From assembly GCA_965197855.1 (NCBI GenBank), contig OZ240230.1:1259950-1323949 (forward strand): DNA of 64,000 bases, in the 5' to 3' direction. The notes beneath the pieces are model-generated. The model did no database searches. It was not told the origin of the DNA and worked only from the letters and a program-made list of their open reading frames with translations. This stretch comes from Bdellovibrionales bacterium. Its GTDB lineage: Bacteria > Bdellovibrionota > Bdellovibrionia > Bdellovibrionales > UBA1609. This document shows, piece after piece, positions 4,731 through 52,040 of the stretch (position 1 is the first letter of the stretch; each line of letters opens with the position of its first letter). Position numbers and translations under genes: made by a program.

Positions 4731-5699
4731 TTATTTTTTTATTGAACTAAAAACTCTTCTGCAAGGTGCAATTAAAGGATTTTTGGATTTTTTATCTTTT
4801 GTGGAATTTTGAATTTGTTCCCCATTTTGAATAGTTTCATTAGCTAATTGTAATGTTTGTTCTGTTTCTTCTAACAATTTAATCATTCTATAATTTGTAT
4901 TAAAAAAGGAGAAATGCCAATACCACCTTAGATTGAGTGTATCAGGGGGGAATATGCCTGCCATCAACTTTGCAACTTGCTTTGGTGTTTGTTTTTGATT
5001 ATTTCTAATATCTAATTGAACTGGATTTTGAAGCATCAGGTGAGCTGTGTCTAAGTCATGAAATTGACTTGTTGAGTGTAAGACCATATCTCCATTCTTA
5101 TTTTGAGCGTTGAAATCAGTTGTGTGATTAACAACTATTTGTATAAAACCTTTCCTATATTCCGGTATTTCTTTCCATACATGTAATAAAGCAATAAGTC
5201 TCATAAGAGTTGGATTGCCCTTGGGATCTCTTGCTTGGTCATCTAAACCGTATTCAAAGAGTAATTCAATAATATGTAAGGGAAAGCGAGGCCGTGCACT
5301 TAGTTGAGTAGCTTTTATAAGAAAATGTTGTTCTGTTTTATAAATTTTATCTTCAGGGAAAGGGATATTAGGATCAGCTCCATTATTTAGAAGAATTTTT
5401 ATAGTCATAATACTATAATTTAAAATATCTTGTTCTATTCCATTTATGTGTTCTAATTGGGAAATCTTATTTTCTACATAAGCGTTATTTACAAGAGCTT
5501 GATTAAGATAGGTATACCCATTTTCATGTATACGATTTAGATTGTTTGTTTTCTCTTTTATGATTTGTGTTATTTTATTAAAGAAGTCTTTTACAAGATC
5601 TTCATCGGCAAGAGGATGATGTGAATCTACCATCATTAAATCAGCATGAGTGTACAGATTAAATAAAATACAAATTAATGCGAATAATCTTTTTAACAT
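4731..5699 (-). CDS. Secreted ankyrin-repeat protein
   Basis: Signal peptide; LLNNGADPN, DFNAQNKNGDMVLH, LDIRNNQKQTP; C-terminal CRRVFS. Confidence 0.8.
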   Translation of the reverse strand: MLKRLFALICILFNLYTHADLMMVDSHHPLADEDLVKDFFNKITQIIKEKTNNLNRIHENGYTYLNQALVNNAYVENKISQLEHINGIEQDILNYSIMTIKILLNNGADPNIPFPEDKIYKTEQHFLIKATQLSARPRFPLHIIELLFEYGLDDQARDPKGNPTLMRLIALLHVWKEIPEYRKGFIQIVVNHTTDFNAQNKNGDMVLHSTSQFHDLDTAHLMLQNPVQLDIRNNQKQTPKQVAKLMAGIFPPDTLNLRWYWHFSFFNTNYRMIKLLEETEQTLQLANETIQNGEQIQNSTKDKKSKNPLIAPCRRVFSSIKK

Positions 5700-5940
5700 A
5701 ATAAATTTATTGGTTGTGAAATGAGCTGTGTAACATATTTATCATCTTAATAATAGAAGTAAATTCAATTTTGAAATTTATTAATATATTGTGAAAAAAA
5801 TACATATAGGAGCTAATCTAATTGGAAATCATAGTGTTTAAATACAATATGCTTCCTTCAAGGGGCCGTTTTATATGGCGCTGGATAATTTGTACAGTTT
5901 ATTTTGGATAGGTGTTTTTAATGAATTTATTAAAACTCAA

Positions 5941-6336
5941 TTATTGTGCTTTACGAGATGGAGTCCAGCTTAATTCTGCCATTTCTTTTTTTGTTAAATG
6001 GCGTGTAACGCTTTTATAAGTCGCATCTATATTATCCATGTTACCAACAGAGTATCCCATGCTCTTATGGTGTAGACTTGCATAGATCGACTGTCCAATT
6101 ATTCCTCTATAATGAGGCTTGACTTCCCCAGATTTATTTAAGATTCGTTTTCTGATAATGCGCCTTTGTATTGGGAAAACAGTTGCTCTTTGAGTCGCAT
6201 GAAAAATTGTACTGGTGATAGTTTGTAATGTGCTTGGGTGTGAAAGTGATTTTTCACAACTTTTATCGCTAAAAGAGTTAAAACTAATCAATGACAATGA
6301 AAAAAGTAAAAAAAGTTTCCTCACGGATGACTTCAT
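5941..6336 (-). CDS. Secreted hypothetical protein (start moved to ATG 6336)
   Basis: MKSSVRKLFLLFSLSLISFNSFS signal followed by DKSCEKSLS. Confidence 0.6.
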   Translation of the reverse strand: MKSSVRKLFLLFSLSLISFNSFSDKSCEKSLSHPSTLQTITSTIFHATQRATVFPIQRRIIRKRILNKSGEVKPHYRGIIGQSIYASLHHKSMGYSVGNMDNIDATYKSVTRHLTKKEMAELSWTPSRKAQ

Positions 6337-6563
6337 CCTCTTTTTGTTGATGTTGGATTGAGTATATACAAAAAACGAAGAAAACACAGAGGATTTTTTA
6401 TAGAGGGGAGTAATACATATTTTCATAGTATGAATGTGTAATTTTACTGGACCTATATGAATGTATTTTTATCAATTTTGAAAAATATTCACTACTTCAA
6501 AAATATGTTGACACAGTTAGTCTTTTGAATGGAAATAGAAATGTTTTTTAGGAGGTTAGAGTT

Positions 6564-7145
6564 ATGAGGTTTTTAATACTTTTTGTTTTGTTTGGCTTTG
6601 GTTTTTCTATAGGGGCTAATGAAAGAGTTAACTTAAAAAATGCTAACGAAATAATATATGGTATTGATGGTGCTAATTATAGACTCAATGAAGATGGAGT
6701 TTTAGTGTCAGCTGGGATGGTTGTGATAGGAGAGGAAAGCCTTAGAGGAGCTTGCTCAGCTGGACGTATTTTTGATCTTAAAGATGCTCAATATGATGTT
6801 GAAAGAGAAGATTTTTATTATACTATTACTAATAACACGGATTCACCGGTTCTTGTGTCCAGAACCAGTGCTGACATGAGAGGTTTATTTTGTGCAACAC
6901 CCTTTAATAGCTTGGAAAAAGATGAGTGTTTAAAGATTTATGAAGATGATCGTTTTCATTCTTTAGTCAGCATTACTGTTAATGACGAAGTTCTATGTGA
7001 TGGTTGGGTGAATAATCATCTGCCTTTTTGTGAATTGAGTAAGAGCTATGAGATTACAAATAAAGGAGAAGAAAACTTTAATGGTTCTCAATATGACATA
7101 AACTTTGTCAGCGCTTCAACTAGAGCTGATTGTACAGAGATGTAA
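6564..7145 (+). CDS. Secreted Cys-rich hypothetical protein
   Basis: AGGAGG RBS, signal peptide, six Cys. Confidence 0.7.
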   Translation: MRFLILFVLFGFGFSIGANERVNLKNANEIIYGIDGANYRLNEDGVLVSAGMVVIGEESLRGACSAGRIFDLKDAQYDVEREDFYYTITNNTDSPVLVSRTSADMRGLFCATPFNSLEKDECLKIYEDDRFHSLVSITVNDEVLCDGWVNNHLPFCELSKSYEITNKGEENFNGSQYDINFVSASTRADCTEM

Positions 7146-7178
7146 TATTTCGATATTTCATAGGTTTTACGGACGATC

Positions 7179-7845
7179 ATGAAAACATATCTTTTGAAGA
7201 ATTTCTTGTATGTATTTTTTTCTTTTTAGTTTTTATTCACATTCCAGTGGGAGGGATGATTTAAATGAAGTGATGCGTAGGTATAAGGAACTTAATGAAG
7301 CTAGAGACAGATATACAAAATCTGTATACAGAATGATAGACGCGCAAGAGGTAAGAACTTTACGACAATACTGGAAAGAAGAACAGGAGCGAATAGAAAA
7401 AACTCAACGTGATGATAAAGAAGCACGAAAAGAACTTCTTGAAACTCTTAAAAATCATATAGGAGAAAGAGAAGTACTCTCACTTATGATCCTCATAGAG
7501 AATTATATCTACTATAGTCATGTTATTAATCTAACTTATGATAAACATGATGGATATGAGTTTCCTATGGTTTTGCATGTGGAATATGATGAAGCCAATT
7601 CATTAGTGCAGTTTTTTGCAAAATACTTTCTCGATAGAAGAGAATTGAAAGCAATGGTTTTACGAACATTCCAACACTTGCAAAGCTCACAATTATCAAG
7701 AATACCAATGAGTGAATTAAGACAGCTGGCCGAACAGTGGGGACCTCTGAGGATGAGACAAAATCTTTATAAGTATCAGTTAACAGATTCAATATTTACG
7801 GATTATTGTGAGAACTCTTTTAGTGGTGGAAGGGATCGCATGTGA
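7179..7845 (+). CDS. Secreted helical hypothetical protein; signal peptide split by a T7 tract
   Basis: ATG 7179 gives MKTYLLKNFLYVFF; removing one T from 7215-7221 fuses it to ORF 7210-7845; C-terminal CENSFS. Confidence 0.6.
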
Positions 7846-7939
7846 TATCTGCTTCAATTTGAAACAGAAAAATTACACTTAAAGAGCATTTGTTGAGCTA
7901 TTTATTGAGAATAGTCATAATGGTCATTGTGTGTGAAGG

Positions 7940-7964
7940 AGATCCCTGTCTTCGCAGGAATGAC
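7940..7964. repeat. REP/RPE-like palindrome
   Basis: AGATCCCTGTCTTCGCAGGAATGAC, same family as 16231-16312. Confidence 0.7.
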
Positions 7965-7981
7965 GAGGGTGTATAAATCCT

Positions 7982-8329
7982 ATGAAGTTATTTGTTTTTA
8001 TATTATCAATGTGCAGTACTTGGGTTTTTGCAGACGTTATAGATGATCAGGTGGATGCTTTAAAAGCTCACATGCAAAAAGCTTTAGATGTTCAAAATCT
8101 TAATGAAGAGAACATACAAAAAAAGATGGAGGAGATGTCAGAAAGTTTATCTGATGCTGATCTTAGTCAATTAAATAATCCTATCACTGAGCCCCTTGAA
8201 GGAATGTCTCAGGAAGAGTTTCGTAAAACGGAGGAGCTTGTTCAGCAAACACTGGATGAACATGGAGTGACTAAGGAAGATTTGAATCAACTCAAACAGG
8301 AAATTTCAGATTTCACTCAGTCCCAGTGA
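7982..8329 (+). CDS. Secreted acidic helical hypothetical protein
   Basis: Signal peptide ending VFA-D; E/Q-rich. Confidence 0.7.
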   Translation: MKLFVFILSMCSTWVFADVIDDQVDALKAHMQKALDVQNLNEENIQKKMEEMSESLSDADLSQLNNPITEPLEGMSQEEFRKTEELVQQTLDEHGVTKEDLNQLKQEISDFTQSQ

Positions 8330-8349
8330 TAATCCTGTAGGTCAAAAAA

Positions 8350-8736: not shown

Positions 8737-8758
8737 TTTTTGCCTCTTTTATTATTTT

Positions 8759-10207
8759 TTACATCCATAATTGAGTCATCCAGTCATGAATAAGCCCGGC
8801 TCTAAAAGATAAATCCAGACTGATCAATAATAAAATAATTATCAAACTGCTCACCCAAGGAAGTTTTTCAAATGGAGGTTTATCTTCTGATGGAGTGAAC
8901 ATGAGTATAATGGGTTTTAAATAATAGGCGAGACCGACTATAGATCCAATCACAGCCCAGAAGAGCATCCACCATAAACCTTTTTGCACCAAGGTTTCAA
9001 ATACAAACAGTTTTGCAAAAAATCCAGCTGTGGGGGGTATACCTGCTAAATTGAGTAAAAACCAAGTGAGAGATAAGGCGTAGAAAGGCTTATGGTTGAA
9101 TAAACCTTTTAAGCTTTGTATGGAGTGTCCAGTGGTGTTTTCCCCTTCAAAGAACATAATATGAGCCATAGCTCCTATTTGAATAACTCCATAGGATATA
9201 AGGTAGTAGAACAAACTGGATACGGAAAATAAATCTGGGATTAGCAAGTTCATTATAATATAACCGGCATGTCCAATACTGGAGTAAATTAATAAACGTT
9301 TGAAGTTATCTTGAAATAAAGCAGAAACATGACCCACAATTAAACTTAAAATAGCAAGCCATTGAAAGAGGATCATGAGGCTTTGGCCGGAATGAGTAAT
9401 AAATCCGCCAAAGAAGACCAATTTAAGTAATAAAACCAAAACAGATGCTTTGACTGCTGTAGACATAAAAGCGGCTAATGGAGTGGCTGAACCTTGATAC
9501 ACATCAGGAAGCCAAAATTGAAAAGGAAAAATCGCTACTTTAAACAGGAGAGCAATACATATGCAGGAAAGCCCTAATACAAAGAGGCGGTTGTTTTGTA
9601 TCAGCAATTGTGAATGATGGAGGATCACATTGAAATCAAAAGAGCCTGCGGCAATATATATAAATGAAAGACCGAGTAGCAATATAGCGGCGGCTACTGA
9701 ACCTAATACAAAATACTTCAGTCCAGCTTCTATAGAAGATACGCGGTCTTTGGCTAAAGGAATCATCAGGTAAAAGCAAAGTGAAATATACTCGATAGAG
9801 ATAAAAGCTGAAATGAGATTGTTAGACCATGTTATTAAACAAAGGCCTAAAACACTATTCATAAAAAGAAACACAAATTCTGAAAAAAACTTATTGTTTA
9901 CAACATGGTTCTCTTTGGCCAATAGCAATGGTAAGGTCATGATTCCCATGAGTAAAATAGCTATTGAGAAAATCCAAGCCGGTTGATCCAATCGGAGTAA
10001 ATTGGAAAATACCAATTGATTTTCATATCCGATAGAGATCATAGCGATGATAGAAAAACAAAAACTGACGAAAGCCACAGATGCCACCCATAAGGACTGC
10101 ATTTCTTTACCTTTCGCAATAGCTTTTATCAGTAGGGGCAGGAAGGAAAACAAAGCAATACTCCATAAAGGAGTGGTGTAAAGAAAATCAAGAAAAGAAA
10201 GTTTCAT
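8759..10207 (-). CDS. nuoN: NADH-quinone oxidoreductase subunit N
   Basis: EAGLKYFVLG, FPFQFWLPDVYQG, KRLLIYSSIGHAGY, LAGIPPTAGFFAK. Confidence 0.95.
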   Translation of the reverse strand: MKLSFLDFLYTTPLWSIALFSFLPLLIKAIAKGKEMQSLWVASVAFVSFCFSIIAMISIGYENQLVFSNLLRLDQPAWIFSIAILLMGIMTLPLLLAKENHVVNNKFFSEFVFLFMNSVLGLCLITWSNNLISAFISIEYISLCFYLMIPLAKDRVSSIEAGLKYFVLGSVAAAILLLGLSFIYIAAGSFDFNVILHHSQLLIQNNRLFVLGLSCICIALLFKVAIFPFQFWLPDVYQGSATPLAAFMSTAVKASVLVLLLKLVFFGGFITHSGQSLMILFQWLAILSLIVGHVSALFQDNFKRLLIYSSIGHAGYIIMNLLIPDLFSVSSLFYYLISYGVIQIGAMAHIMFFEGENTTGHSIQSLKGLFNHKPFYALSLTWFLLNLAGIPPTAGFFAKLFVFETLVQKGLWWMLFWAVIGSIVGLAYYLKPIILMFTPSEDKPPFEKLPWVSSLIIILLLISLDLSFRAGLIHDWMTQLWM

Positions 10208-11754
10208 TTTTTATTTCCTCTTATGTGGGATGAAATTTGATTATTTGTTTTTTTTGTAGAAGATGAATAAATAGTCAGAGTGTAGTTTCCTCTATTATCT
10301 ATAAGTGGATCCAGGCTTTGTTGAGAGTATTTAAAAAATAGATTGGGCCAGAGGCCTGTTATAAAAATTAAAATGACAATGGGGATGATCACTGATATTT
10401 CTTTCAGATTTAGATCTGATATATTTTTCATTTTCACTTCTCCAAAAAAGACTTTTAAAATTAAGAGAAGCATATAACCTGCTCCCAGTACAACTCCTGT
10501 CAGAGCTAGGGGAGCCCACTGCATTTTTGCCAAAAATGTTCCAAATAAAACCAGGAATTCAGAGATAAAACCCCCTGTTAAGGGAAGGGCGATAGCAGAT
10601 AAAGACACGATAAAAAACAAAGCGCTGTAAATAGGTGTTAAGTGAGCCAGTCCTCCATAGTGATCCAGATTTTTAGTGTGAGTACGTGAAGAAATCATAC
10701 CTACAAGGAAAAATAAACCTGCTGAACTCAATCCATGAGTGAGCATTTGATAGTAGCCGCCAGATAAAGAATAGTGATTAAAAACAAAAAAGCCGAGTAT
10801 GGAATAACCTATATGTGAGACAGAAGAATAGGCAATTAGTTTTTTGAAATCCGATTGAGCTAAAGCCATTAAAGCTCCGTAAATAATTCCAAAGACAGCC
10901 AAGAAACAAAGCCAAGGGGAGTAATATAAAGAGGCGTCGGGAAATAAAGGCAGAATAAATCTTAAGAATCCATACACTCCCATTTTTAAAACGATAGCGG
11001 CTAGAAAAACAGAGCCGGCAGTTGGAGCTTCTACGTGGGCTAAAGGAAGCCAGGTATGGAAGGGGAATAAAGGAGCTTTGACAGCAAAAGCAAAGAAGAA
11101 GGTAAAAAATAAGAGGCTTTGAGTGCTTAGAATATAACCGCCGACGAATGGAATTTTCAGTTTGTAAAAATCAAGAATATTTGCGCTCAATTCTCCCGTC
11201 TGTTCTTTTACAAGGAACATTAAGGTCAGTAAACCCACCAGCATAAAAAGCGAGCCTAAGGCTGTATAAATAAAAAATTTCAGGGAAGCATAAACTCGAT
11301 CTTTTCCGCCCCATAGCAGTATGAGAAAAAATAGAGGGAGCAGGGAGCCTTCAAAAAAGATATAAAATAAAATACCGTCTAAAGCGAGGAAAGATCCCAT
11401 CACAAATCCTGTCAGAAGAAATAAGCAGGCTAAAAATCCTTTTGTGTTTTTATCTGTACTGAATGCAGAATAAAAAATGCATAGTGGAAATAAAAAAGAT
11501 GTCAGCAGTACCAGCCAAAAAGAGATACCGTCAATACCTACAAAATATTGAATACCAAAGGAGGGAAACCACTGTATTTGTTCGGAGAGCTGGATCGCGG
11601 AACTTTTCGAGTCAAACAGGGTAAATAGAGATAAACTAAAAATGAAGTAAGCAATAGAGAGTATCACTGCTGTATAGCTTGCTTTCTTTTCAGAAAGGCA
11701 GAAAATAATTAAGGCGCCAATAAAAGGCAAAGTAATTAAGCTGGTTAAAATCAT
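10204..11754 (-). CDS. nuoM: NADH-quinone oxidoreductase subunit M
   Basis: GIDGIS, VKAPLFPFHTWLPLAHVEAPT, KKLIAYSSVSH. Confidence 0.95.
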   Translation of the reverse strand: MILTSLITLPFIGALIIFCLSEKKASYTAVILSIAYFIFSLSLFTLFDSKSSAIQLSEQIQWFPSFGIQYFVGIDGISFWLVLLTSFLFPLCIFYSAFSTDKNTKGFLACLFLLTGFVMGSFLALDGILFYIFFEGSLLPLFFLILLWGGKDRVYASLKFFIYTALGSLFMLVGLLTLMFLVKEQTGELSANILDFYKLKIPFVGGYILSTQSLLFFTFFFAFAVKAPLFPFHTWLPLAHVEAPTAGSVFLAAIVLKMGVYGFLRFILPLFPDASLYYSPWLCFLAVFGIIYGALMALAQSDFKKLIAYSSVSHIGYSILGFFVFNHYSLSGGYYQMLTHGLSSAGLFFLVGMISSRTHTKNLDHYGGLAHLTPIYSALFFIVSLSAIALPLTGGFISEFLVLFGTFLAKMQWAPLALTGVVLGAGYMLLLILKVFFGEVKMKNISDLNLKEISVIIPIVILIFITGLWPNLFFKYSQQSLDPLIDNRGNYTLTIYSSSTKKTNNQISSHIRGNKK

Positions 11755-11758
11755 TTCA

Positions 11759-13582
11759 TCACCTAAAAAGTGTTACTAAAATAAAAATAAAAAGACCTAT
11801 TCCCATAAATAAAACATAATGTCCCAGGACACCACTTTGATAAAATCCCTTTTTTATAGGCAGGAAGTATTGTTTGCTGAGTCGGATTCCTTTTTGGATG
11901 ACATCTGTTTCCACAGAGCGAAACAAAGCTGTGCTTACATTCATAATGCCTTCAGCAAAATATGTTTGATAAAATTGATCCAAACTCCAGTTGATTTTAA
12001 AAATCCATGGATTGGTGAGACGACCTTTTTTCAGGAAATAGACAGTAAATACAGCAATAGCCGCTACAAACAATACAGATATGACAGCCAACAATATTTC
12101 AGAAAAAATATCTCCAGATACTTTATAGTTTGGATCTACAAAACGGCTGAGTAAATTTCCAGGTATTATATGAGGCATGAAGTGCGGCCAGTTTAAAACG
12201 CCGGCTGTAATGCTGAGAAAAGCCAGGACACATAAAGGAATATTCATCATCCACCCTCCTTCATGTGCTTTTGAGTGATCTTGATTGGATGCTTTCCAAA
12301 ATGCATAATACAAAGTTCTTGTGGTGTAAAAGGCAGTGAGTCCGGCTCCCAGAAAAGCTATAAACCAAAGGATATAGTGTCCTTCATGGAAAGTGTGATA
12401 TAAAATTTCATCTTTACTAAAAAAGCCGCTTAAAAAAGGCAAGCCCATTAAAGCTAAAGATCCTATTAGAAAACTGATAAATGTGTAGGGCATTTTTTTT
12501 CTTAATTGTCCCATGTTTCGAATATCCTGTTCTCCATTTAAACCATGAATCAAACTACCTGCAGATAAGAACAAACAAGCTTTAAAAAAAGCGTGAGTCA
12601 TTAAGTGAAATAAAGCAGAAGAAAAAGCTCCAACACCTAAAGCTAAAAACATATAGCCTAGTTGTGAAATGGTGGAGTAAGCCAGAATTTTTTTGATATC
12701 CCAGTTTTTACAGGCTAAATAAGCGCCTAAGAATGCTGTAAGAACTCCCATCACGGCCAGGATATTTAATGCCAAAGGGGAAGCCAGCCATAAAGAGTTG
12801 GTTCGAATGATCAAGTAGACCCCTGCAGTGACCATTGTAGCGGCATGAATCAAAGCAGATACAGGTGTGGGTCCTGCCATGGCGGACGGAAGCCAAACAT
12901 AAAGAGGAAGTTGAGCTGATTTTCCAGCCGCTCCCATAAACATCAATAAACAAAGAACAAGAAGCCATGAAGAGGGAATAGCTTCTGTTACTGTTAAATT
13001 TGAAAAATCCAGGGAACCAAAAAAAGAAAAACATAAAAATAAACATACCAGAAAAAAAGTATCACCGATTCTATTCACAATAAAAGCTTTCATTCCGGCA
13101 ATAGCTTTTTCCTTTTTTGTAAACCAAAACCCAATAAGCAGGTAGGAGCAAAGGCCCACTCCTTCCCAACCGACAAAGAGCAGAAGTAAATTATTCGCCA
13201 ATACTAAAATCAGCATATTAAATAAAAATAAATTTAAATAAGAAAAATAACGTCCAATTCGTTTATCATTCCACATATACTCCACACTAAAAATGTGAAT
13301 GAGAAAGCTTACTCCAGTAATAATTAAGGTCATAGTCAGACTGAGTGAATCCAAAAGCACAGAGAAATCAACTTCCAGTTGATTCAAGTAAATCCAAGGA
13401 GCTAAAAAGACTTCCTGAGCTTGCCCGGAATAAGTAAAGAATAAATAAAGTGCAGATACGAAAGGAATAAAACTGGCCATACAGCCAAGCCACACAGTTA
13501 GATGTTTATTCCAACGTATAAAAGAGTTGGCTAAAAAACCAATGAAAGGGCTTATCAATAAAATACAAACAGCTAACATCAT
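11759..13582 (-). CDS. nuoL: NADH-quinone oxidoreductase subunit L
   Basis: GWEGVGLCSYLLIGFW, GKSAQLPLYVWLPSAMAGPTPVSALIHAATMV. Confidence 0.95.
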   Translation of the reverse strand: MMLAVCILLISPFIGFLANSFIRWNKHLTVWLGCMASFIPFVSALYLFFTYSGQAQEVFLAPWIYLNQLEVDFSVLLDSLSLTMTLIITGVSFLIHIFSVEYMWNDKRIGRYFSYLNLFLFNMLILVLANNLLLLFVGWEGVGLCSYLLIGFWFTKKEKAIAGMKAFIVNRIGDTFFLVCLFLCFSFFGSLDFSNLTVTEAIPSSWLLVLCLLMFMGAAGKSAQLPLYVWLPSAMAGPTPVSALIHAATMVTAGVYLIIRTNSLWLASPLALNILAVMGVLTAFLGAYLACKNWDIKKILAYSTISQLGYMFLALGVGAFSSALFHLMTHAFFKACLFLSAGSLIHGLNGEQDIRNMGQLRKKMPYTFISFLIGSLALMGLPFLSGFFSKDEILYHTFHEGHYILWFIAFLGAGLTAFYTTRTLYYAFWKASNQDHSKAHEGGWMMNIPLCVLAFLSITAGVLNWPHFMPHIIPGNLLSRFVDPNYKVSGDIFSEILLAVISVLFVAAIAVFTVYFLKKGRLTNPWIFKINWSLDQFYQTYFAEGIMNVSTALFRSVETDVIQKGIRLSKQYFLPIKKGFYQSGVLGHYVLFMGIGLFIFILVTLFR

Positions 13583-13896
13583 CCGCGAAACCTGTTAAAT
13601 AATTGGATGTCAATAGTTTGAGATCTTTTGTAAGCTTGTACAGCCAAAGCCAGGCCTACACCGGCTTCTGCCGAAGCAATGGTCATTACAAAAAAAGCGG
13701 TAATCTGTCCGTCGAGATTAGCGTAATATTGACTTGTGGCAATCAATATTAAGTTGACTGCATTGAGCATTAATTCGATGCACATTAAAATAACCAGAAT
13801 ATTTCTCCTAAACAAGACTCCAAAGAGGCCAATAAAAAACAAAGCCAGGCCCAGGTAAATATGGTGATGAATAGTAATATGAGCTAATGTAATCAT
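13579..13896 (-). CDS. nuoK: NADH-quinone oxidoreductase subunit K
   Basis: RRNILVILMCIELMLNAVN, AEAGVGLA. Confidence 0.95.
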   Translation of the reverse strand: MITLAHITIHHHIYLGLALFFIGLFGVLFRRNILVILMCIELMLNAVNLILIATSQYYANLDGQITAFFVMTIASAEAGVGLALAVQAYKRSQTIDIQLFNRFRG

Positions 13897-14384
13897 GGGT
13901 CCTCACTTCGGCTTAACAGCACGACACCTACGGCGACAATCATCAGCAACACACCTATCCATTCGAAAAATAAAACATAATCGGTAAATAAAAGAGTGGC
14001 TAAAGACTTTGTAGGTGTTACTTCCGGAGTGACAATATTATTGGTAAATCCTGTGGAATGAGGAATCACTCCGGAGAGAACACCTAACATAAAAACGGAG
14101 ATAAAAACTTTAGCGGCCAAATGTCGATGTTCCTTTGGTTCAGAATTTTTTTTGTTGTCAAAAAGCATCACCACCATCACAAAAAGAACCATGACAGCGC
14201 CGGCATAAACCACTAGCTGTACGCCAGCCACAAAGTAGGCGCCAAGATTAAAAAAGAGCCCTGCTAACGCCACCATAGTAAGCGCCAAATGAAGAGCACA
14301 GGTAATGGGATTTTTTCTGAATATAGTATTTAAGGCTCCATAAAGAGCTAAAAAAGAGAGAACATAAAATAGAAAAGGAGTCAT
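13893..14384 (-). CDS. nuoJ: NADH-quinone oxidoreductase subunit J
   Basis: QLVVYAGAVMVLFVMVVML; position between nuoH and nuoK. Confidence 0.93.
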   Translation of the reverse strand: MTPFLFYVLSFLALYGALNTIFRKNPITCALHLALTMVALAGLFFNLGAYFVAGVQLVVYAGAVMVLFVMVVMLFDNKKNSEPKEHRHLAAKVFISVFMLGVLSGVIPHSTGFTNNIVTPEVTPTKSLATLLFTDYVLFFEWIGVLLMIVAVGVVLLSRSEDP

Positions 14385-15547
14385 TAAGATACCATCCCCC
14401 AGCGAACAAGCCAGATCATTACAGCTGTAGCTATAGCATTAAACAAAGACCATGGCAGTAGAGTTTTCCAGCCTAAATCCATTAACTGGTCGTAGCGAAA
14501 ACGCGGCAGTGTCCAGCGCACCCATATAAATACCCAAAGGAAAAAGAGGACTTTTAAAAAGAAACATAGAAATAAAATCAGAGAGCTTAAAAGGCTTGTT
14601 GCCGTTAATGAGAAATGCGGCAGGAGCCATGATTGAAGGTTTTCTTCGTTGAGAAAAGGATAAAAATTGTAGCCTCCAAAGTAAAGGATCACCATCAATG
14701 AGGAAGCTACCAGCATATGCCCATATTCTCCCATATAAAAAATAATGATTTTAATTCCTCCATATTCTGTATGATATCCGGCTACAAGTTCTGCTTCAGC
14801 TTCCGGAAGGTCAAAAGGCAGTCGGTTGGCTTCTGCAAATAGAGCTACAAATAATAAGAGTGCTCCCAAAGGTTGATAAAAAATACCCCAATTGGGGAGA
14901 AAACCAACACTGACTTCTTTGGAAAAGAATTGAAAATTCAAAGGTTGGTTTTGTATTTCAATAATTTGATCAAAACTAAAAGTATTAAAGAGGATGAGTA
15001 CCCCCAGCAAACTTAAACTTAAAGCCAGTTCATAGCTAATAGCTTGAGCTGAAGCTCGGAGAGCTCCCAGAAGCGAAAATTTACTGCCGGAACTCCAACC
15101 AGCTAAAAGCAGGGAATAAACAGCCAAAGATGAAATTCCAAAAACAAAGATAACTCCAATATCCATTGGAAAAGAACGCACTTCAAAAATATAAGGCCCC
15201 AGGGAGTGTCCAAACAGTTGAAAGTTATCAATATAAATAGGTGAAGAAAGAGGAAGGGCTCCAAAAGCTATAGCTACAGGGATGATGGCTAAAATAGGAG
15301 CTAGATAAAAGTAAAATTTATTTGTTTTACTGCTTGCGAAGTCTTCTTTAAATATGAATTTTACAAGGTCTGCCAAAAGTTGAGTAAGCCCCAAGGGGCC
15401 TACTCGATTCGGGCCAAAGCGATTTTGCATAAAGGCTGAGGCACGTCTTTCCACCCATACCAGGACGGGCACCATCTGAACCATAAATAAAAATATTAAA
15501 ATTATTTTTACAGTGTTTATGACACTGGAGAAAATATCTTCTCCCAT
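14384..15547 (-). CDS. nuoH: NADH-quinone oxidoreductase subunit H
   Basis: QNRFGPNRVGP, NRLPFDLPEAEAELVAGYHTEY, RWTLPRFRYDQLM. Confidence 0.95.
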   Translation of the reverse strand: MGEDIFSSVINTVKIILIFLFMVQMVPVLVWVERRASAFMQNRFGPNRVGPLGLTQLLADLVKFIFKEDFASSKTNKFYFYLAPILAIIPVAIAFGALPLSSPIYIDNFQLFGHSLGPYIFEVRSFPMDIGVIFVFGISSLAVYSLLLAGWSSGSKFSLLGALRASAQAISYELALSLSLLGVLILFNTFSFDQIIEIQNQPLNFQFFSKEVSVGFLPNWGIFYQPLGALLLFVALFAEANRLPFDLPEAEAELVAGYHTEYGGIKIIIFYMGEYGHMLVASSLMVILYFGGYNFYPFLNEENLQSWLLPHFSLTATSLLSSLILFLCFFLKVLFFLWVFIWVRWTLPRFRYDQLMDLGWKTLLPWSLFNAIATAVMIWLVRWGMVS

Positions 15548-15561
15548 TTTTTACTCCAAAT

Positions 15562-15951
15562 TTATTTCCAGTTAAGAGCCTTGATCCGAATTTCCCAAAA
15601 TAAACCCAGGATAAACAATAGTAGAAAAATAATAAAAGCCATCAGATAACTATTGCCATGTCCTCTGTCTAAGAAATCTCTGTAAGCTATAGCCCAAGGA
15701 TAGAGAAAAATAATTTCGATGTCGAACAAGACAAATAAAATAGCTGTTAAGTAATAACCTGAAGAGATTCGAGAGCTTTGAGCCGGAGTGCCGATTAAAC
15801 CGCACTCATAGGCGATATCCTTATCTGGATCGGTCTGAGTATCTGTAGATTTTTGAGTGTAACGGGTGATTAGATGAGCCACGGACATCAGCAAGCCAAC
15901 AACAGTGACAGCAACTAACGTAACAACTCCAATAGCCAATAGAGAATTCAT
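15562..15951 (-). CDS. nuoA: NADH-quinone oxidoreductase subunit A
   Basis: YECG, YYLTAILFVLFDIEIIFLYPWA. Confidence 0.95.
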   Translation of the reverse strand: MNSLLAIGVVTLVAVTVVGLLMSVAHLITRYTQKSTDTQTDPDKDIAYECGLIGTPAQSSRISSGYYLTAILFVLFDIEIIFLYPWAIAYRDFLDRGHGNSYLMAFIIFLLLFILGLFWEIRIKALNWK

Positions 15952-26754: not shown

Positions 26755-27270
26755 ATGTACGATTTAGAAATGAGTGTTTTAAAACCAGCTTTTCATTATT
26801 TATTGGCAATTATTTTAATTTTCTGTTCTTACAGCAGTACAGCTTGCGAATTAGAATTTTCTAAAATCACAAATAAAAAAAATATAGTAGAAAGAGCAAA
26901 AGATCAAGTCATCAGATCCCAAGAGAGTCTACAAAAATTTAAAAATAGAAGATTTGGTTTTTTTGCAGGTATTGTAAAAATTTTTGAAGAAGAACCACAA
27001 ATGAACGATCTGGCTATTCGTGTCTCTGGTGAATTTGAAGGCGACATTCGAGAGCCAACGAAAATTTTAATTATTGAACCTGCAAGTCGGGTGAAAGGTG
27101 ATGTTGATGTGCAAACTCTCATACTTCACGGGTATTTAGAGGGTCATGTCAAAGCTTCTGAAACAGTTGAAATGTCTTCTTCAGCTTATTTTAAAGGAAC
27201 TTTGGAAAGTCCTTCATTAAGTATTGAAATAGGAGCTGTTTTTAGAGGTGTCAGCCGTGTTTCAAAATAA
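26755..27270 (+). CDS. Bactofilin (polymer-forming cytoskeletal) domain protein with signal peptide
   Basis: IRVSGEFEGDI..LIIEPASRVKGDVDVQTLILHGYLEGHVKASETVEMSSSAYFKGTLESPSLSIEIGAVFRG; N-terminal hydrophobic peptide plus CELEFS. Confidence 0.85.
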   Translation: MYDLEMSVLKPAFHYLLAIILIFCSYSSTACELEFSKITNKKNIVERAKDQVIRSQESLQKFKNRRFGFFAGIVKIFEEEPQMNDLAIRVSGEFEGDIREPTKILIIEPASRVKGDVDVQTLILHGYLEGHVKASETVEMSSSAYFKGTLESPSLSIEIGAVFRGVSRVSK

Positions 27271-27464: not shown

Positions 27465-27890
27465 GTGTTTTTTGGTCTCAATTTAAAACAATTTTTATTG
27501 TTATTCATTTTATCTATTTTTTCTTTTTCTTCTTATAGTAGTGGCGGGGATAAGTGTGAGGAAGGATTATCTGGTCATTCTACAAATAATAATTCTGAAG
27601 GCAATTCATCGAGAGATGCAATAAATAAGGCTATGGCTGAATCTCTTTCTAAACCTGTTGAAGATTTGAATTCAAGTGAAATGGTCATTGCTGTGAAAGT
27701 TATAAATACCTTTAAAAAGGATGGTATTCTTACTTATGAAGATTTGGTTCGTAGAACAAGAGAGTATCTTTTAAGCATGCCAAATGTGGGTCAAAAATCT
27801 GTTAATAATATTGAAGAAGTACTTGCAATTGATGGTCTCTCTTTAGGAATGATAGATACGGAGCTTAATTTCATAATGTCATTTTTATAA
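27465..27890 (+). CDS. Signal-peptide protein with RNA polymerase alpha C-terminal domain
   Basis: KPVEDL..AVKVINTFKKDGILTYEDLVRRTREYLLSMPNVGQKSVNNIEEVLAIDGLSLGM aligns by eye to RpoA CTD. Confidence 0.85.
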   Translation: MFFGLNLKQFLLLFILSIFSFSSYSSGGDKCEEGLSGHSTNNNSEGNSSRDAINKAMAESLSKPVEDLNSSEMVIAVKVINTFKKDGILTYEDLVRRTREYLLSMPNVGQKSVNNIEEVLAIDGLSLGMIDTELNFIMSFL

Positions 27891-41096: not shown

Positions 41097-41103
41097 TTAG
41101 TTT

Positions 41104-41814
41104 TTATTGTGTGTAGAATGTAAATGATTGCTGGCAATGAACTGGTCTTGTCATTGTCATTTGATTTACTTTTCCATTTGTTTGTTTTTTTAAATTATTT
41201 ATAAACCGCATAATTTTCGTATAGGTATCCGGATTTTTATTTCTATACTTTCGTGCATAATCCAGAGGGGTTTTTCCATGAATATCTCTTTTATCCAGAG
41301 CTTCTGGGTGCAGTTTTATAATGAATTTCTTTACATCCAGATCATTTCGATATCTGAATATGTAGTGTGCAGGGAGTCTGCCATCATTGTCTGGGATCAT
41401 GATGGCTTCAGGGCGCAGGCTATAGGTAAACTGAATAACATCTAGAGGATGTTGATGTCTGAGTCCAAGAAGAAGAGCATGTTTTCCCAGATAAGTGCTT
41501 ATATAGATAACTTGGGGATCCTCTTTTGACATGAATTTAATAGTTTCTAGATCAACTCGATATATGTATCCAGAGAGAAAAGGGGTTTCCCCTTGTCTGT
41601 TTTGAGCACTCAGATCTGCTCCTTGCATGACTGCGTTTTGGATCTCTTTTAAACTACCTCCATTTTCAATAATCTTGTGAGCAATCCTGTTTTTATCTGG
41701 AAATATAGGAGCATTAATTCCTTCATCAGTATCTAGAGTATCTAGCTCGGCACAGATGCCAGCAGATAGATCAAAAAGGAGCATAAGTAATAGTAATACA
41801 TGTATCAATTTCAT
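41104..41814 (-). CDS. Secreted ankyrin-like repeat protein
   Basis: Signal peptide; GADLSAQNRQGETP, DNDGRLPAH, RDIHGKTPLDYA; C-terminal CQQSF. Confidence 0.8.
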   Translation of the reverse strand: MKLIHVLLLLMLLFDLSAGICAELDTLDTDEGINAPIFPDKNRIAHKIIENGGSLKEIQNAVMQGADLSAQNRQGETPFLSGYIYRVDLETIKFMSKEDPQVIYISTYLGKHALLLGLRHQHPLDVIQFTYSLRPEAIMIPDNDGRLPAHYIFRYRNDLDVKKFIIKLHPEALDKRDIHGKTPLDYARKYRNKNPDTYTKIMRFINNLKKQTNGKVNQMTMTRPVHCQQSFTFYTQ

Positions 41815-42120
41815 AAAAAATCCCTTTCACTTGTTGATATTGAATTTCAGTATAATTAAATATTTCCAAGAAAATTTTCAGGCCAAGTTATCAAAAGAAT
41901 CTTTTTTTGTAAAGAATTAAAGAGGCACTGTGTATTTAATACAATATTGAATAGACTTATGTTTATAAACTAAAAATATCAAAATATTATTATATTGAAA
42001 ATTTTACATTGTAAAAGCTCTATTCTTGACACTAGAATGTTATCTTAATATTATGCGTCATAACTGCAATAAGGGTATCTATTCAGTAAGCTTCTATGCT
42101 TGTTTTTACAGGGATGTCTT

Positions 42121-43161: not shown

Positions 43162-43165
43162 TCCA

Positions 43166-47571: not shown

Positions 47572-47707
47572 CTAACGTAAAACTTTAATATTGCGATCTT
47601 AAAGATTTCTTAACAATACATTTTTGTAATTAGAAAAATAATTTCCATTCAATAAATGGAGAAAATTATTTTACCTTTGTAATATTTACACGAAATATAC
47701 AATCATC

Positions 47708-48643
47708 TTGCTAAAAATATTCTGTTCCAATATATGTAAAATAACTTTTATATCTCTATCGGGATGGAGATTTATTATGATAGACTTGGATTCAGTCAGT
47801 ACAGTAGAAGTGCAAACTTCTCATTTGCAAAAAAAATATTTCAATACTTCAAAGCAGTTTGCATCCTGTATTTATTATTCTACCTATTCTGATGATACAG
47901 CAATTGTTATGGCAGAGTGCTCTGAACTTGCTTACGAAAAAGAACATATCTTACAACAGTACTTAAAAGAGGGTCAGATGGAACTCAAGTTGATAAGAGA
48001 TGAGGATCCTCAGTTCTTTTTGGCAGAGCATGCTCATTATGTAGTTTTGGCATTTCGGGGTACAGAATCAGATAATATTAAAGATATAATAACAGATCTT
48101 GATATTAGGAGAAAGTCTACAAAACAAGGGGAGATACACACTGGTTTTTTAAATTCCTATTGTCGTGTTCATAAGGAGTTATCTTCTTATTTGAAAAATA
48201 TACAAAAACCTATTTATATTACAGGACATTCTCTGGGAGCCGCTTTGGCTGTTATAGCAACTGCTCAATTAAGTCGTTATACGTTAGCCGCATGTTATAA
48301 TTTTGGTTCTCCTCATATAGGGTCTCTGGATTTTGATACGCGCCTTAAGGTGCCGGTTTATCGTATTGTGAATTTTGGTGATATTATTCCAAATTTATTG
48401 AGTTGGCATGTAGGGTATTATCATCCAGGATATACGTATTATCTGACTAAAGATAATCAGCTTACACGTTCATTAGGTGTTGCTCAAAGAGTTTCCAATT
48501 TTGTTACACAACAAAAGTATAAATTTGTTAACAGTAGTCAAAAAGGGTTATTATCAAATCATTCCATGTTAGAATATTTAGAAAAATTAAAAAAAATTGC
48601 TATATCGAGAAGAAACTTTATTCATCAAAGTTTATGTGAATAG
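47708..48643 (+). CDS. Lipase class 3 family protein
   Basis: LAFRGTE, IHTGF, ITGHSLGAALA, NFGSP, VNFGDIIP, NHSM. Confidence 0.9.
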   Translation: MLKIFCSNICKITFISLSGWRFIMIDLDSVSTVEVQTSHLQKKYFNTSKQFASCIYYSTYSDDTAIVMAECSELAYEKEHILQQYLKEGQMELKLIRDEDPQFFLAEHAHYVVLAFRGTESDNIKDIITDLDIRRKSTKQGEIHTGFLNSYCRVHKELSSYLKNIQKPIYITGHSLGAALAVIATAQLSRYTLAACYNFGSPHIGSLDFDTRLKVPVYRIVNFGDIIPNLLSWHVGYYHPGYTYYLTKDNQLTRSLGVAQRVSNFVTQQKYKFVNSSQKGLLSNHSMLEYLEKLKKIAISRRNFIHQSLCE

Positions 48644-48675
48644 GGTATAAGAGTTGTCCGGAAAGGGAGGTAAAA

Positions 48676-48981
48676 ATGAGACTTCTAGGGGTGTTTTTAT
48701 TGGTATTTTTGACTGCTCCAATATTTGCTAATGATTCTATAGGCGTAGAGTCTGCAGAGGACAAATATGTGATTTGTGATTTGGAGGATCGTTGTTGTGA
48801 AATAGACTCTTCTGTTGCGGAGGGTTTGGAATGGAGATTTGGAGCTAAGCAATTTTTTAAATGTAGCTTTAGTTATTTTTTTGGGACTAATGAAGAAGAT
48901 TATAATGAATGTAGAAGGATAGTCGGCAACGAATTTTGGGGAGCACTTGCAGAGCATGTAAATCAATTTTGTGATTTTTGA
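48676..48981 (+). CDS. Small secreted Cys-rich protein
   Basis: GGGAGG RBS, signal peptide, six Cys. Confidence 0.7.
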   Translation: MRLLGVFLLVFLTAPIFANDSIGVESAEDKYVICDLEDRCCEIDSSVAEGLEWRFGAKQFFKCSFSYFFGTNEEDYNECRRIVGNEFWGALAEHVNQFCDF

Positions 48982-49425
48982 TTATTCAATTGGCTCTTCT
49001 AAAAAAGGCTCTTCTAAAAAAGGTTCATCCATATTGTCGGATGAGCTTTGAGCTAATGAGTTGTTTTTTGGTAGAAGATCTAGTATATCGACTTGGAAGG
49101 CAGTACAGAACCCATTGTGTTGTACAGTATCAGTCACCCAAATCATAATCTGATTACCTGTCATGGCAGCTATGAGTGCGTCATTCCGCATTCGTTCACC
49201 ACCTTCTTTTGAAATTTGATCAGAGTCACATCCTAAAGATACCCAGCGGGATGAGCGGCACTCTAATCCGAATTCAGCAGGATTTTGCTGTATAAGGACC
49301 ATGCAACCCCCATAAGTTTGGCGAGCATTTGCTCGTGTTCTGCCAACATATGTACGTATGCGCACATGTGCCGCATCAGCAACGTATGGCAACATAAAAC
49401 ATAATATTAATAGTAGTTTTTTCAC
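48982..49425 (-). CDS. Secreted hypothetical protein
   Basis: Signal peptide ending ADA; GGCM..C..WVSLGC..HNGFC; EPFLE repeat tail. Confidence 0.7.
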   Translation of the reverse strand: MKKLLLILCFMLPYVADAAHVRIRTYVGRTRANARQTYGGCMVLIQQNPAEFGLECRSSRWVSLGCDSDQISKEGGERMRNDALIAAMTGNQIMIWVTDTVQHNGFCTAFQVDILDLLPKNNSLAQSSSDNMDEPFLEEPFLEEPIE

Positions 49426-49560
49426 TTTAGAGCTTCCTAGTTAGCTATCCATAAATTTAGTGTAAAATATTATAAAATGTCAATTATTTTGTCAGTTGTA
49501 AGACATTTCTTATGAATTGCTGTACTTTTTACAGGCTTTCTTTAAAAACATAAGAAAAAG

Positions 49561-49647
49561 ATGTCCACAATATTTAAAAAAAATATTCGTAAAGAAATCC
49601 CTGTAGAGATTGTTTATGAAGATGATTTGTGTCTGTTTATCGTTTGA
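49561..49647 (+). pseudogene. N-terminal fragment of HIT (HinT-like) nucleotide-binding protein
   Basis: MSTIFKKNIRKEIPVEIVYEDDLCLFIV* matches the HinT N-terminus; no HxHxH motif follows. Confidence 0.75.
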
Positions 49648-50685
49648 TTATAAACAGTTTAGTTTTTCAAGAAATTCTTCTAATCTATTTGCAGGAGGGT
49701 ATAAAGTTAACCAATCCTTTTCCCAGATTTTTTGTGCAGTTTTATGATCAAAATTACCTCCTGATAATATAATAAGTACAGATTGTGGTTTTTTTTGAGT
49801 CATGAGCCACCTGAATGCGGCACACATACCTAAGGCACTTGTAGGTTCTATATGAGCTTTAAGTAAATGTGACACCCATTGAGTCCAATAAATAATTTCT
49901 TCTTCCTCGATTTCAAATATTCCATCGATTGTTTGTATATAAGGATAAGCGACTTTGGTAATACGAAGTGTTGCCACTCCATCATTGGCTATTATAGGCT
50001 CGCTTCCAAAAATTTTTATATCAGGATTCAAGTCTCTGGAGGTAATAATAATTCCTGAAAGAATACTGCCACCTCCCAGAGGAGCAAAAATAGCGGATAT
50101 ATTTTCATTTTGTAGTTGTTTGAGAGCTTCGTAGCAAGCTGTCCCCTGACCTTGAATGATATATTCATTGTCAAATAATGAGATGAAAACTCCTTCTCCG
50201 GCTTCTTCCGCTTTTGCAGAGGCCTCTTCTATTTCCGGACGTGTTTTCTTAAAAATCACTTGAGCCCCAAGAGCTTGGGTAGATTGTACTTTTGCTTTAG
50301 ATGTGTACGAGGTCATATATACATCAATGGGTATGGAAAATTGTTGAGCTGTCCAGGCCATAGCCTGTGCATGGTTTCCAGAACTATATGTAATAAGTTT
50401 TTTTGGCAGGTTGTTTTGTTCTTTCATTTGAGATAAGGCATTCATAGCTCCTCTGACTTTAAAAGAACCTGTTTTCTGAAGATGTTCAGATTTAAAATAA
50501 AGACGGTGACCAAGAAATTTATTTAAACGATCAGAAGACAGTATAGGTGTATGATGAATAAAACTTTTAATTCTTTCAAAAGACTTTTCTATATCTTTTA
50601 AAGAGGAAACTGCCATATGACCTTTTAAAGGGTGGGAGTAAATAATCAGCTTGTGGAATTTATTATAACTGTAAGAGGAAGTCAA
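49648..50685 (-). CDS. Serine/threonine dehydratase or serine racemase family PLP enzyme
   Basis: HTPI, KSEHLQKTGSFKVRGA, SSGNHAQA, GQGT, EPTSA, SGGN. Confidence 0.88.
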   Translation of the reverse strand: MTSSYSYNKFHKLIIYSHPLKGHMAVSSLKDIEKSFERIKSFIHHTPILSSDRLNKFLGHRLYFKSEHLQKTGSFKVRGAMNALSQMKEQNNLPKKLITYSSGNHAQAMAWTAQQFSIPIDVYMTSYTSKAKVQSTQALGAQVIFKKTRPEIEEASAKAEEAGEGVFISLFDNEYIIQGQGTACYEALKQLQNENISAIFAPLGGGSILSGIIITSRDLNPDIKIFGSEPIIANDGVATLRITKVAYPYIQTIDGIFEIEEEEIIYWTQWVSHLLKAHIEPTSALGMCAAFRWLMTQKKPQSVLIILSGGNFDHKTAQKIWEKDWLTLYPPANRLEEFLEKLNCL

Positions 50686-51251
50686 AGTACTTTAGCTAAA
50701 AGTCTTATTCCAATAAATTCATATATATTAATAGGATATGAAGTGGCTTTATATTTGTTTTACTTCCGTATATTAAAATCTTGGATGAGGTATTTTAAAA
50801 ACTTTAGATGACAAACAAATAATAATATTTAATGGGATCAAAGGATTGATCCCGAAGAGATTGATTGTATCTATTATATGTTTTCGATTTATAGGTTTTT
50901 ATTGGTCTGTGAGGATATTTAAGTGTATTTGGGTTTTTTAATTTTAAAGATGTATGGGCATCTGACATGAAGGGCTCCTTTTAAAAGTATTTATGAATTG
51001 TTTGAATACTTTAAAAAGTTTCGGATAAAATTAAGAAAACATAAGTATTAAATTTCTTTTTTTAACATAAAAAATATTGTATTTCATAATGAAACAAAAA
51101 ATATAAATTATGAAATAATAATTTGGTTATAAGGATAAAAGCATGGTACTTTACTTCGCATCAATCATTAAGAAACGTGGCTTTCCAACAACTAGTTGGT
51201 ATTTTTGATCTGGACAGGTCATTTTATTTGTAATTTTCTCTGTTTTGTTAC

Positions 51252-52040
51252 CTAGGAGTATAGGTGTTTGTTTCTATAGAATTCCCCAATTATGTAATAC
51301 AGTCCCTCTGTTAAGCTGAATTCAGATTTCTGGGTGATTTTTAAATAATATTCAAAAAATTTAATAAATTGGTCATAAGATTTAAGAGGAGATTTGAGTA
51401 AAGTAGTGTGAAGCTCATGTGAAGCTTGTTCAATCTGTTGGAATATTTGTAATACTTCCCACTCGATAGCAGACCGGTCTTCGGGTTTTTTACTTAAGAT
51501 GTTATCAATAGCTATATCTAACTCTATCACATGATAAATTCCTATACTGGGAAACAATTGCTGGGCATGTTGTATAAATGCATCTAATGGTTTAAGAGCT
51601 AGGAGGATTTGTTGCCCCTGCTTGATATATTCTTCAAATTTTTCATGACTTATTTTTTTAAGAACCCTAAGGGCCATATGCTTAATATAGGGTATAGGTT
51701 CAACTTTGATATGAGCATTTAAAGTCGCTATAACTTCTATATATGTGACATTATATTTTTCAAGAATTTCTAGAAAACCCATTCTCACTTCAGGGACAGG
51801 ATCTTGCAAGAGTGGTAGAAGTGCTATGTAAATGTTATCTATGGGGTTCAGTTTGTTGATCATTTGAAGAGCTTCTAAACGTTCTTGTGGTTTTGCACTG
51901 TAAACTTTTCTTTGAAAAACATTATGGAACGTAATTGCTTGTTGTTTGATCTCAGCCATCACTCTTTCACAGGTACTGCTATAAGAAACAGCAGGTAAAA
52001 TTACCAGAATTAGTAAGTACAGAAGCTTAATACGTTTCAT
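51252..52040 (-). CDS. Secreted HEAT-repeat-containing protein
   Basis: Signal peptide plus STCERVM; LLPLLQDPVPEVRM. Confidence 0.65.
   Translation of the reverse strand: MKRIKLLYLLILVILPAVSYSSTCERVMAEIKQQAITFHNVFQRKVYSAKPQERLEALQMINKLNPIDNIYIALLPLLQDPVPEVRMGFLEILEKYNVTYIEVIATLNAHIKVEPIPYIKHMALRVLKKISHEKFEEYIKQGQQILLALKPLDAFIQHAQQLFPSIGIYHVIELDIAIDNILSKKPEDRSAIEWEVLQIFQQIEQASHELHTTLLKSPLKSYDQFIKFFEYYLKITQKSEFSLTEGLYYIIGEFYRNKHLYS

Follow-up and report, generated by a model that had tools for sequence, protein, structure and literature searches.

Why should unrelated exported proteins of one small bacterial genome share a short peptide built around a single cysteine, in some cases just behind the signal peptide and in others at the very end of the chain? 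The question arises from a stretch of 64,000 nucleotides of a Bdellovibrionales bacterium (assembly GCA_965197855.1, contig OZ240230.1, positions 1,259,950 to 1,323,949 of the forward strand; hereafter the window). A preliminary description of it had quoted eight such peptides, proposed the motif C-x-x-x-[FL]-S and suggested a sorting tag that works at either end. All eight peptides were confirmed in the open reading frames (ORFs) concerned, and tagged proteins of the window are named below by the first coordinate of their ORF (Table 1). The sequence patterns show that C-x3-[F/L/M/I] is an end tag, modular and specific to the lineage, on proteins that a small-genome relative of Bdellovibrio exports by the Sec route.

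The source genome (G000) is a single contig of 1.40 Mb with 35% G+C. The best named match of PurA from the window is a Pseudobdellovibrio sp. MAG at 54% identity, all others being at 50% or below, which agrees with the assigned lineage but only weakly. The 2483 ORFs of G000 of at least 60 residues were thinned by a greedy longest-ORF rule to 1319 proteins covering 91% of the genome, and 382 of these were flagged as signal-peptide-like by a hydropathy rule of our own rather than by SignalP. As both calls are crude, we put the weight on internal controls and not on absolute counts. A genome of the same genus (G002, the congener) was taken whole for comparison. Samples of 400 kb each were used for a genome of another genus of the same family (G008; 1.6 Mb, 49% G+C; positions 1-400000), for a 3.1-Mb genome of the same family (G010) and for a member of another family (G025). 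A further genome, G003, was sampled over 200 kb, and the distribution outside the genus rests on such samples, not on whole genomes. Family-profile searches covered G000, G002, G008, G025 and G010, which are referred to as the five genomes. The core tags are 34 N-terminal and 19 C-terminal instances from G000 and G002 together.

The G000 ORF set, 426,404 residues in all, contains 96 matches to the strict motif C-x3-[FL]-S, where about 70 are expected from residue frequencies by our own arithmetic, and the excess is concentrated at protein ends. Of the strict matches, 10 lie within the 28 residues that follow the hydrophobic region (h-region) in the 382 signal-peptide-like proteins. Shuffling within these segments gave a mean of 1.7 and a maximum of 7 in 2000 shuffles; control spacings of 0, 1, 2, 4 and 5 and the reversed motif gave 1-4 matches each. 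A motif-free test was also carried out, in which the residue at every offset was tallied for each cysteine. For cysteines located 2-17 residues past the h-region, Phe, Leu or Met is found at +4 in 37 of 103 cases in G000 (7-19 at other offsets) and in 24 of 96 in the congener (4-21 at other offsets). Cysteines 7-14 residues from the C-terminus of signal-peptide-like proteins behave likewise (16/55 in G000 and 18/48 in G002; 2-12 at other offsets), whereas cysteines in the same position of other proteins show no peak and lie at about baseline (21/98 and 35/143). The background, measured at +4 of any cysteine in non-signal-peptide proteins, is 0.19 in G000 and 0.18 in G002. Rough binomial P-values for the +4 peaks in the two genomes are 1e-9 and 3e-4 after the h-region, and 8e-4 and 9e-6 at the C-terminus. 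The preliminary description had allowed that the motif might be no more frequent at the termini of secreted proteins than elsewhere; it is enriched there relative both to shuffles and to non-signal-peptide proteins. The offset tally also shows a milder rise at +7 (18 and 21), suggestive of one side of a short helix. What can be said for the earlier word "amphipathic" is confined to this mild rise and the hydrophobic +4 residue.

Across the 53 core tags the +4 residue is Phe in 34, Leu in 12 and Met in 7, and in the family of the 51252 protein it may also be Ile. The C-x3-hydrophobic part of the motif first proposed is thereby retained, but the Ser at +5 is not: it is present in 15 of the 53 (12/34 N-terminal and 3/19 C-terminal tags) and is freely exchanged in orthologues, so that the proposed motif was too narrow. 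Glu stands at +1 in 20 core tags, and +3 is frequently Ser. The conserved core thus reads C-x3-[F/L/M/I], often with Glu at +1. In 33 of the 34 N-terminal tags an AxA-like signal peptidase I site lies upstream, which by a crude rule places the cysteine at about position 1-9 of the mature protein. In the 19 C-terminal tags the cysteine is 5-14 residues from the end, counting the cysteine itself, and is preceded by a variable polar linker; some of these tags have as few as 0-1 residues beyond +4. A few core calls are probably false, including a beta-strand-like CF[IV]HLE segment conserved in both genomes and one ORF of 69 residues. We also considered whether small residues at +3 and +5 make up a signal peptidase I site. 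This was rejected, as they are enriched in G000 only (44/103 each, against 30 and 27 of 96 in G002) and are not kept in orthologues.

The tag is carried by about 2% of called ORFs, and the proteins bearing it are diverse. The core tagged proteins number 24 in 18 sequence clusters in G000 and 29 in 22 clusters in G002. The claim that the cargoes are unrelated thus holds at the level of clusters, but not for every pair, the 27465 and 28024 proteins being paralogues. Two clusters mix tag ends. In G000, two Sel1-repeat proteins are tagged C-terminally and a homologous trypsin-plus-Sel1 protein N-terminally, which bears out the suggested flexibility in position. Pfam domains found in the cargo are ankyrin (three proteins), Sel1 (three), bactofilin, the C-terminal domain of the RNA polymerase alpha subunit (alpha-CTD; two) and a weak HEAT match, while no family was assigned to 8 of the 18 tagged proteins scanned. 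These repeat domains are our grounds for regarding the tagged proteins as putative effectors. In an AlphaFold2 model of the 4731 protein the ankyrin core is confident, whereas residues 293-322 have a pLDDT (per-residue model confidence) of about 30, with a four-residue helix placed exactly on C313-V316. A confident core with such a tail has the architecture of a tether, as does the use of either end in homologous cargo.

Conservation was followed between the two genomes and within three families. For 12 of 39 loosely defined G000 instances (six N-terminal and six C-terminal), a homologue in G002, at 22-54% identity, has retained C-x3-[FLM] at the corresponding end; conserved instances inside the highly conserved sequence of cytoplasmic housekeeping proteins were left out of this count. 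For the 4731 protein, a large protein database yielded 14 homologues that align well across the repeats. The linker of about 40 residues that follows varies in sequence and length, after which 11 of the 14 close with C-x3-[FL] and a further 1-9 residues; of the remaining three, one is truncated. The syntenic orthologues of the 41104 protein in G002 (53% identity) and in a further genome, G001 (42%), likewise keep the C-terminal cysteine with Phe or Leu at +4 behind a diverged linker. In the 51252 family, five homologues at 21-24% identity share 15 invariant columns, among them the tag cysteine, Cys24. A profile search of 1.84 billion representatives with this family returned 626 matches at E<=0.001, mostly long repeat proteins, of which 17 were examined (15 full-length proteins, one 119-residue fragment and one N-terminally truncated sequence). 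The cysteine lies a few residues past the signal peptide in all 16 that have an N-terminus, with Phe, Leu or Met at +4 in 12 and Ile in 4, and it is the sole cysteine outside the signal peptide in all 15 full-length members. By these alignments the tag is under selection. An origin as a DNA repeat was ruled out, because the codons of the motif differ among instances.

A motif without function, arising from chance, composition or shared leader ancestry, would be in keeping with the paralogy of some tagged genes (27465 and 28024) and with the Ser-rich composition of the region behind the signal peptide. Given the shuffle, spacing and non-signal-peptide controls, the 18 and 22 independent clusters, the differing codons and conservation at 21-54% identity, we consider this extremely improbable.

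The cysteine is unusual for its surroundings. Untagged exported proteins of G000 prefer even numbers of cysteines (0:91, 1:36, 2:69, 3:9, 4:38, 5:6, 6:25, 7:3), and those of G002 are similar. Such a bias is taken as a mark of periplasmic disulfide formation in PMC7678975, where Dutton et al. 2008 is cited for it. G000 encodes a VKOR-DsbA fusion (CPLC and CPHC motifs) and a lipoprotein DsbA (CGFC), and Thioredoxin_4 was matched in all five genomes. These two proteins and the even-cysteine sawtooth mark the periplasm as oxidising. Exactly one cysteine after the h-region is found in 60 signal-peptide-like proteins of G000 and 51 of G002. This lone cysteine is no more than 18 residues from the h-region, or no more than 15 from the end, in 40 of the 60 (11.6 expected) and in 34 of the 51 (10.1 expected). 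When terminal, it has Phe, Leu or Met at +4 in 24/33 and 29/33 cases; when internal, in 3/20 and 4/17 (Fisher P 5.6e-5 and 1e-5 for G000 and G002). Lone cysteines that sit in a terminal tag make up 24 of 60 and 29 of 51, and therefore about half of the anomalous lone-cysteine exported proteins are accounted for by the tag. As had been noted for the window, the tag occurs on cysteine-poor proteins, usually with no other cysteine in the chain.

We infer from this that the thiol is the working part of the tag. Our preferred reading, held with somewhat less than even confidence, is that the lone thiol acts as a covalent tether, in its simplest form an intermolecular disulfide tether or dimer made by DsbA/VKOR. 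After Sec export, cleavage by signal peptidase I would expose the thiol of the tag, which DsbA/VKOR would oxidise to an intermolecular disulfide without any new enzyme being required. Candidates for the partner would be a carrier or envelope protein shared by the cargoes, or a second tagged protein. The hydrophobic +4 residue, together with Glu at +1, may provide what the partner or the oxidoreductase recognises, and reduction of the bond would release a cargo that had until then been kept on the cell or within complexes. We favour the disulfide tether since the Dsb system already encoded would suffice for it and since it explains the cargo without other cysteines. Also in its favour, family-profile searches for the enzymes of known Cys-tag systems returned none in the tag-bearing genomes.

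Several points weigh against this reading. No partner was found, and we know of no precedent for the tethering of a whole set of unrelated proteins by one disulfide tag. DsbA homologues occur in 5/5 genomes, including relatives with tag-free samples; DsbA, being equally present without the tag, therefore does not explain its distribution. If the conserved hydrophobic residue at +4 and Glu at +1 served for recognition by a dedicated enzyme or receptor, the fit would be no less good, and the thiol could be a host-lipidation site if the cargo works in the reducing cytosol of a host. The whole analysis, moreover, builds on hydropathy-based signal-peptide calls and the greedy longest-ORF set. No cognate enzyme or carrier of the tag was found.

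If the cysteine is not oxidised, it may be lipidated. Bacterial effectors are known to be palmitoylated close to either terminus. The lone cysteine might be S-acylated, or carry some other modification, and the enzyme could be an unrecognised bacterial one or, once the protein has been delivered, a host palmitoyltransferase; the cargo would then be anchored to a membrane. With its terminal cysteine and flexible linker the tag is reminiscent of lipoprotein tethers, the cysteine is often followed by basic and hydrophobic residues, and ankyrin, Sel1 and HEAT-like cargo is typical of host-interacting proteins. The lipoprotein pathway (Lgt/LspA), which operates on a cysteine soon after the signal peptide and leaves a flexible tether, offers a parallel, and Lgt and canonical lipoproteins are present in G000. 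The N-terminal tags, however, often have Lys, Glu, Asp, Asn or Pro at -1 and an AxA-like site before the cysteine (33/34), and the C-terminal form cannot use this pathway. A search for the lipobox ([LVI]-[ASTVI]-[GAS]-C at the end of the h-region) classed 3/34 N-terminal tags as lipobox-like, while 29/34 have polar or charged residues between h-region and cysteine. The tagged proteins are thus not the ordinary signal peptidase II lipoproteins that the preliminary description had allowed they might be. Lgt was found in 5/5 genomes, with a single copy per tag-bearing genome, and does not discriminate by tag. The CaaX box and host lipidation of effectors also recall a cysteine near the terminus of repeat-rich putative effectors, but the tagged proteins have Sec signal peptides, and CaaX processing is ruled out by position, since the box has its cysteine exactly four from the end and the 19 C-terminal tags have theirs 5-14 from it. 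Of candidate enzymes, MBOAT (PF03062) is absent from G000, G002 and G008 (0/3 tag-bearing genomes) and was found only in G010, and the CPBP/Rce1-like protease (PF02517) was matched in 0/5 genomes by a profile that matched 11/14 control genomes. A motif-specific enzyme would not by itself account for the loss of other cysteines from the cargo. On balance we regard lipidation as rather unlikely.

Another use of a thiol is cyclisation. In the AgrD precursor of the staphylococcal autoinducing peptide, signal peptidase I takes off a leader, and a short tail is followed by a C-x3-hydrophobic ring. Cleavage after +4 would give the tagged proteins a five-residue thiolactone formed via a thioester; ring size and hydrophobic last residue match this pattern, and the N-terminal tags follow an AxA-like site by 1-9 residues in 33/34 cases, as a leader and short tail would. 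Here, however, the "tail" is the whole protein, the cleavage is purely hypothetical, and AgrB (PF04647) was found in 0/5 genomes. The residue after +4 is not conserved, large proteins as leaving group have no known precedent, and some C-terminal tags have tails of 0-1 residues past +4. Such processing is very unlikely.

Finally, the hexapeptide might serve as a non-covalent address label, read by an export or loading machine (e.g., one based on a secretin) for passage across the outer membrane. A tagged share of about 2% of ORFs is comparable to other sorting tags, the tag is portable between ends, and G000 has four secretin-domain genes. Secretins are nevertheless present in 5/5 genomes, again including relatives with tag-free samples, and a label of this kind leaves the invariance of the cysteine and the near-absence of other cysteines in the cargo unexplained; we think it improbable.

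The disulfide tether, like its alternatives, has to be set beside known sorting signals. MYXO-CTERM-type signals are described in a preprint by Haft (10.1101/2023.06.07.544157) as a Cys motif with a transmembrane helix and an Arg cluster, strictly C-terminal and in need of a CPBP/Rce1-like protease. The related Cys-bearing C-terminal signals JDVT-, Synerg- and CGP-CTERM are presented there and in PMC11980579 as processed by myxosortases. As described in these sources, MYXO-CTERM resembles the present tag in being a short, lineage-specific, invariant-Cys tag on dozens of unrelated signal-peptide proteins. It differs in that here 5-14 residues lead from the cysteine to the end, there is no helix and the tag is used N-terminally too. 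TIGR03901 (MYXO-CTERM) was matched in 0/5 genomes at E<=0.1 and sortase (PF04203) in 0/5. The CFI-box model NF041763 gave nothing over its curated cut-off in G000, G002 and G008, with weak matches in tiny ORFs, and NCBIfam sorting signals did not match the eight window proteins. Literature searches, which did not extend to supplements, and family libraries contained no description of a C-x3-hydrophobic tag. The tag belongs to the general kind of short invariant-Cys terminal tags on Sec-exported proteins; none of the features by which the catalogued members are defined applies to it, and its use at either end is an addition to the kind.

The tag is present in G000, G002 and G001. G003 has two paralogues ending in C-E-Q-V-[LF]-N-Q and one member of the 4731 alignment. 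In the G008 sample, 8/18 near-C-terminal cysteines of signal-peptide-like proteins have Leu or Phe at +4, and 7 of these 8 have Leu also at +3. The variant there is typically C-x-x-L-L-x-x-end, on unrelated signal-peptide-like proteins, with three N-terminal cases; two paralogues of 484 and 512 residues with this ending share roughly ten preceding residues as well. The C-x3-hydrophobic tag was not found in the 400-kb sample of G025, and that of G010 gave no clear tag signal. In the G025 sample (positions 1-400000), the cysteine of 6/11 lone-Cys exported proteins lies 2-5 residues from the C-terminal end, and four of the six have Tyr as their last residue; this may represent another dialect of terminal Cys tagging.

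A wider reading joins these patterns into a covalent addressing system that has not been described. By means of a six-residue, lone-cysteine tag at either end, each genome would have some 25-50 of its exported repeat proteins, unrelated to one another, loaded onto a common carrier or the cell surface, through a disulfide or thioester that would be freed on contact with the reducing interior of host or prey, and sister small-genome lineages would have their own dialects (C-x-x-L-L-x-x-end in G008, possibly C-Y-end in G025). We put this forward as a speculative and rather doubtful proposal. Earlier short end tags on unrelated exported proteins repeatedly led to new sorting enzymes (sortase, exosortase, rhombosortase and myxosortase). 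The C-x3-hydrophobic tag is without the membrane helix that every catalogued Cys tag has, and is usable at either end. With it, probable host- or prey-directed proteins of uncultured, reduced-genome Bdellovibrio relatives can be listed by a sequence criterion, and its Cys and +4 residues offer a simple mutational handle for finding a partner.

Six paralogous G000 proteins of 87-88 residues were considered as a partner of the tag and are kept as a lead. They have an N-terminal membrane helix and a single penultimate cysteine (five end in C-L, one in C-T) and are encoded outside the window, at G000:C1:462125-462391, 469869-470132, 492373-492639, 1176178-1176441, 1222275-1222541 and 1246611-1246877. 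Several adjoin pilin or pilin-cassette genes, the products of which also end in a cysteine. G002 has only two homologues, with the cysteine a few residues further in.

The tagged proteins of the window are listed in Table 1. The window, with its 64 kb or 4.6% of the genome, contains six of the 24 core G000 tags and is, by our own arithmetic, a hot spot.

Table 1. Tagged proteins encoded in the window (positions are those of the window).
Protein	ORF	Tag codons	Strand	Basis and remarks
Ankyrin-repeat exported protein, 322 residues, C-terminal tag CRRVFS	4731..5699	4746-4763	-	Pfam Ank_4 27.4 bits; Cys 10 residues from end
Exported protein, 131 residues, no known family, N-terminal tag CEKSLS	5941..6336	6241-6258	-	ORF and Pfam scan
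Helical protein, 211 residues, C-terminal tag CENSFS	7210..7845	7807-7824	+	Single Cys, 12 from end; signal peptide doubtful
Bactofilin-domain protein, 171 residues, N-terminal tag CELEFS	26755..27270	26845-26862	+	Pfam Bactofilin 65.6 bits; signal-peptide-like N-terminus
Exported protein, 141 residues, RNA polymerase alpha-CTD-like domain, N-terminal tag CEEGLS	27465..27890	27555-27572	+	Pfam RNA_pol_A_CTD 45 bits; single Cys
Paralogue of the 27465 protein, 659 residues, N-terminal tag CSKSFS	28024..30003	28114-28131	+	Single Cys in 659 residues
Ankyrin-repeat exported protein, 236 residues, C-terminal tag CQQSFT	41104..41814	41119-41136	-	Pfam Ank_5 31.2 bits; Cys 10 from end
Helical-repeat protein, 262 residues, N-terminal tag CERVMA	51252..52040	51954-51971	-	Weak HEAT match; single Cys

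Some of these proteins call for comment. The longest ORF of the 5941 gene reaches 6426, and its signal peptide begins at the Met at 6336. The signal peptide ascribed to the 7210 protein is unconvincing, as the hydrophobic start is short and a stop lies five codons upstream; no homologue of this protein was found in G002. The 41104 protein has an extra, non-conserved cysteine at the end of its signal peptide. For the 51252 protein, a two-copy complex prediction (residues 21-262) gave "no support", a result without bearing on a homodimer either way.

The bactofilin domain of the 26755 protein stands behind a signal-peptide-like segment, and its best match in G002 is a 114-residue bactofilin without that N-terminal extension. 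The 27465 and 28024 proteins carry alpha-CTD-like (helix-hairpin-helix) modules behind signal peptides, an odd domain for export. Homologue searches with either protein returned only the query itself; in the congener, a homologue of the 27465 protein has CSEEFS at the equivalent position. The 28024 protein has internal repeats of approximately 80 residues. Repeats with a W-x-G-W/F-L-G signature build this protein (window 28024-30003) and the tagged proteins at G000:C1:1077686-1078996 and G000:C1:1155006-1156430; a weak Pfam INT_rpt match was obtained in 28024 only, and the same repeat type occurs in tagged proteins of G002 and G003.

Elsewhere in the window, a series of membrane-protein ORFs occupies 8759-15951 on the minus strand. 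The ORF at 2675-3052 (minus strand) and two paralogues outside the window encode small signal-peptide-like proteins that share an invariant CRIGMTTNPERR segment, kept in G002. This segment fits C-x3-M, yet it resembles part of a folded domain rather than a tag.

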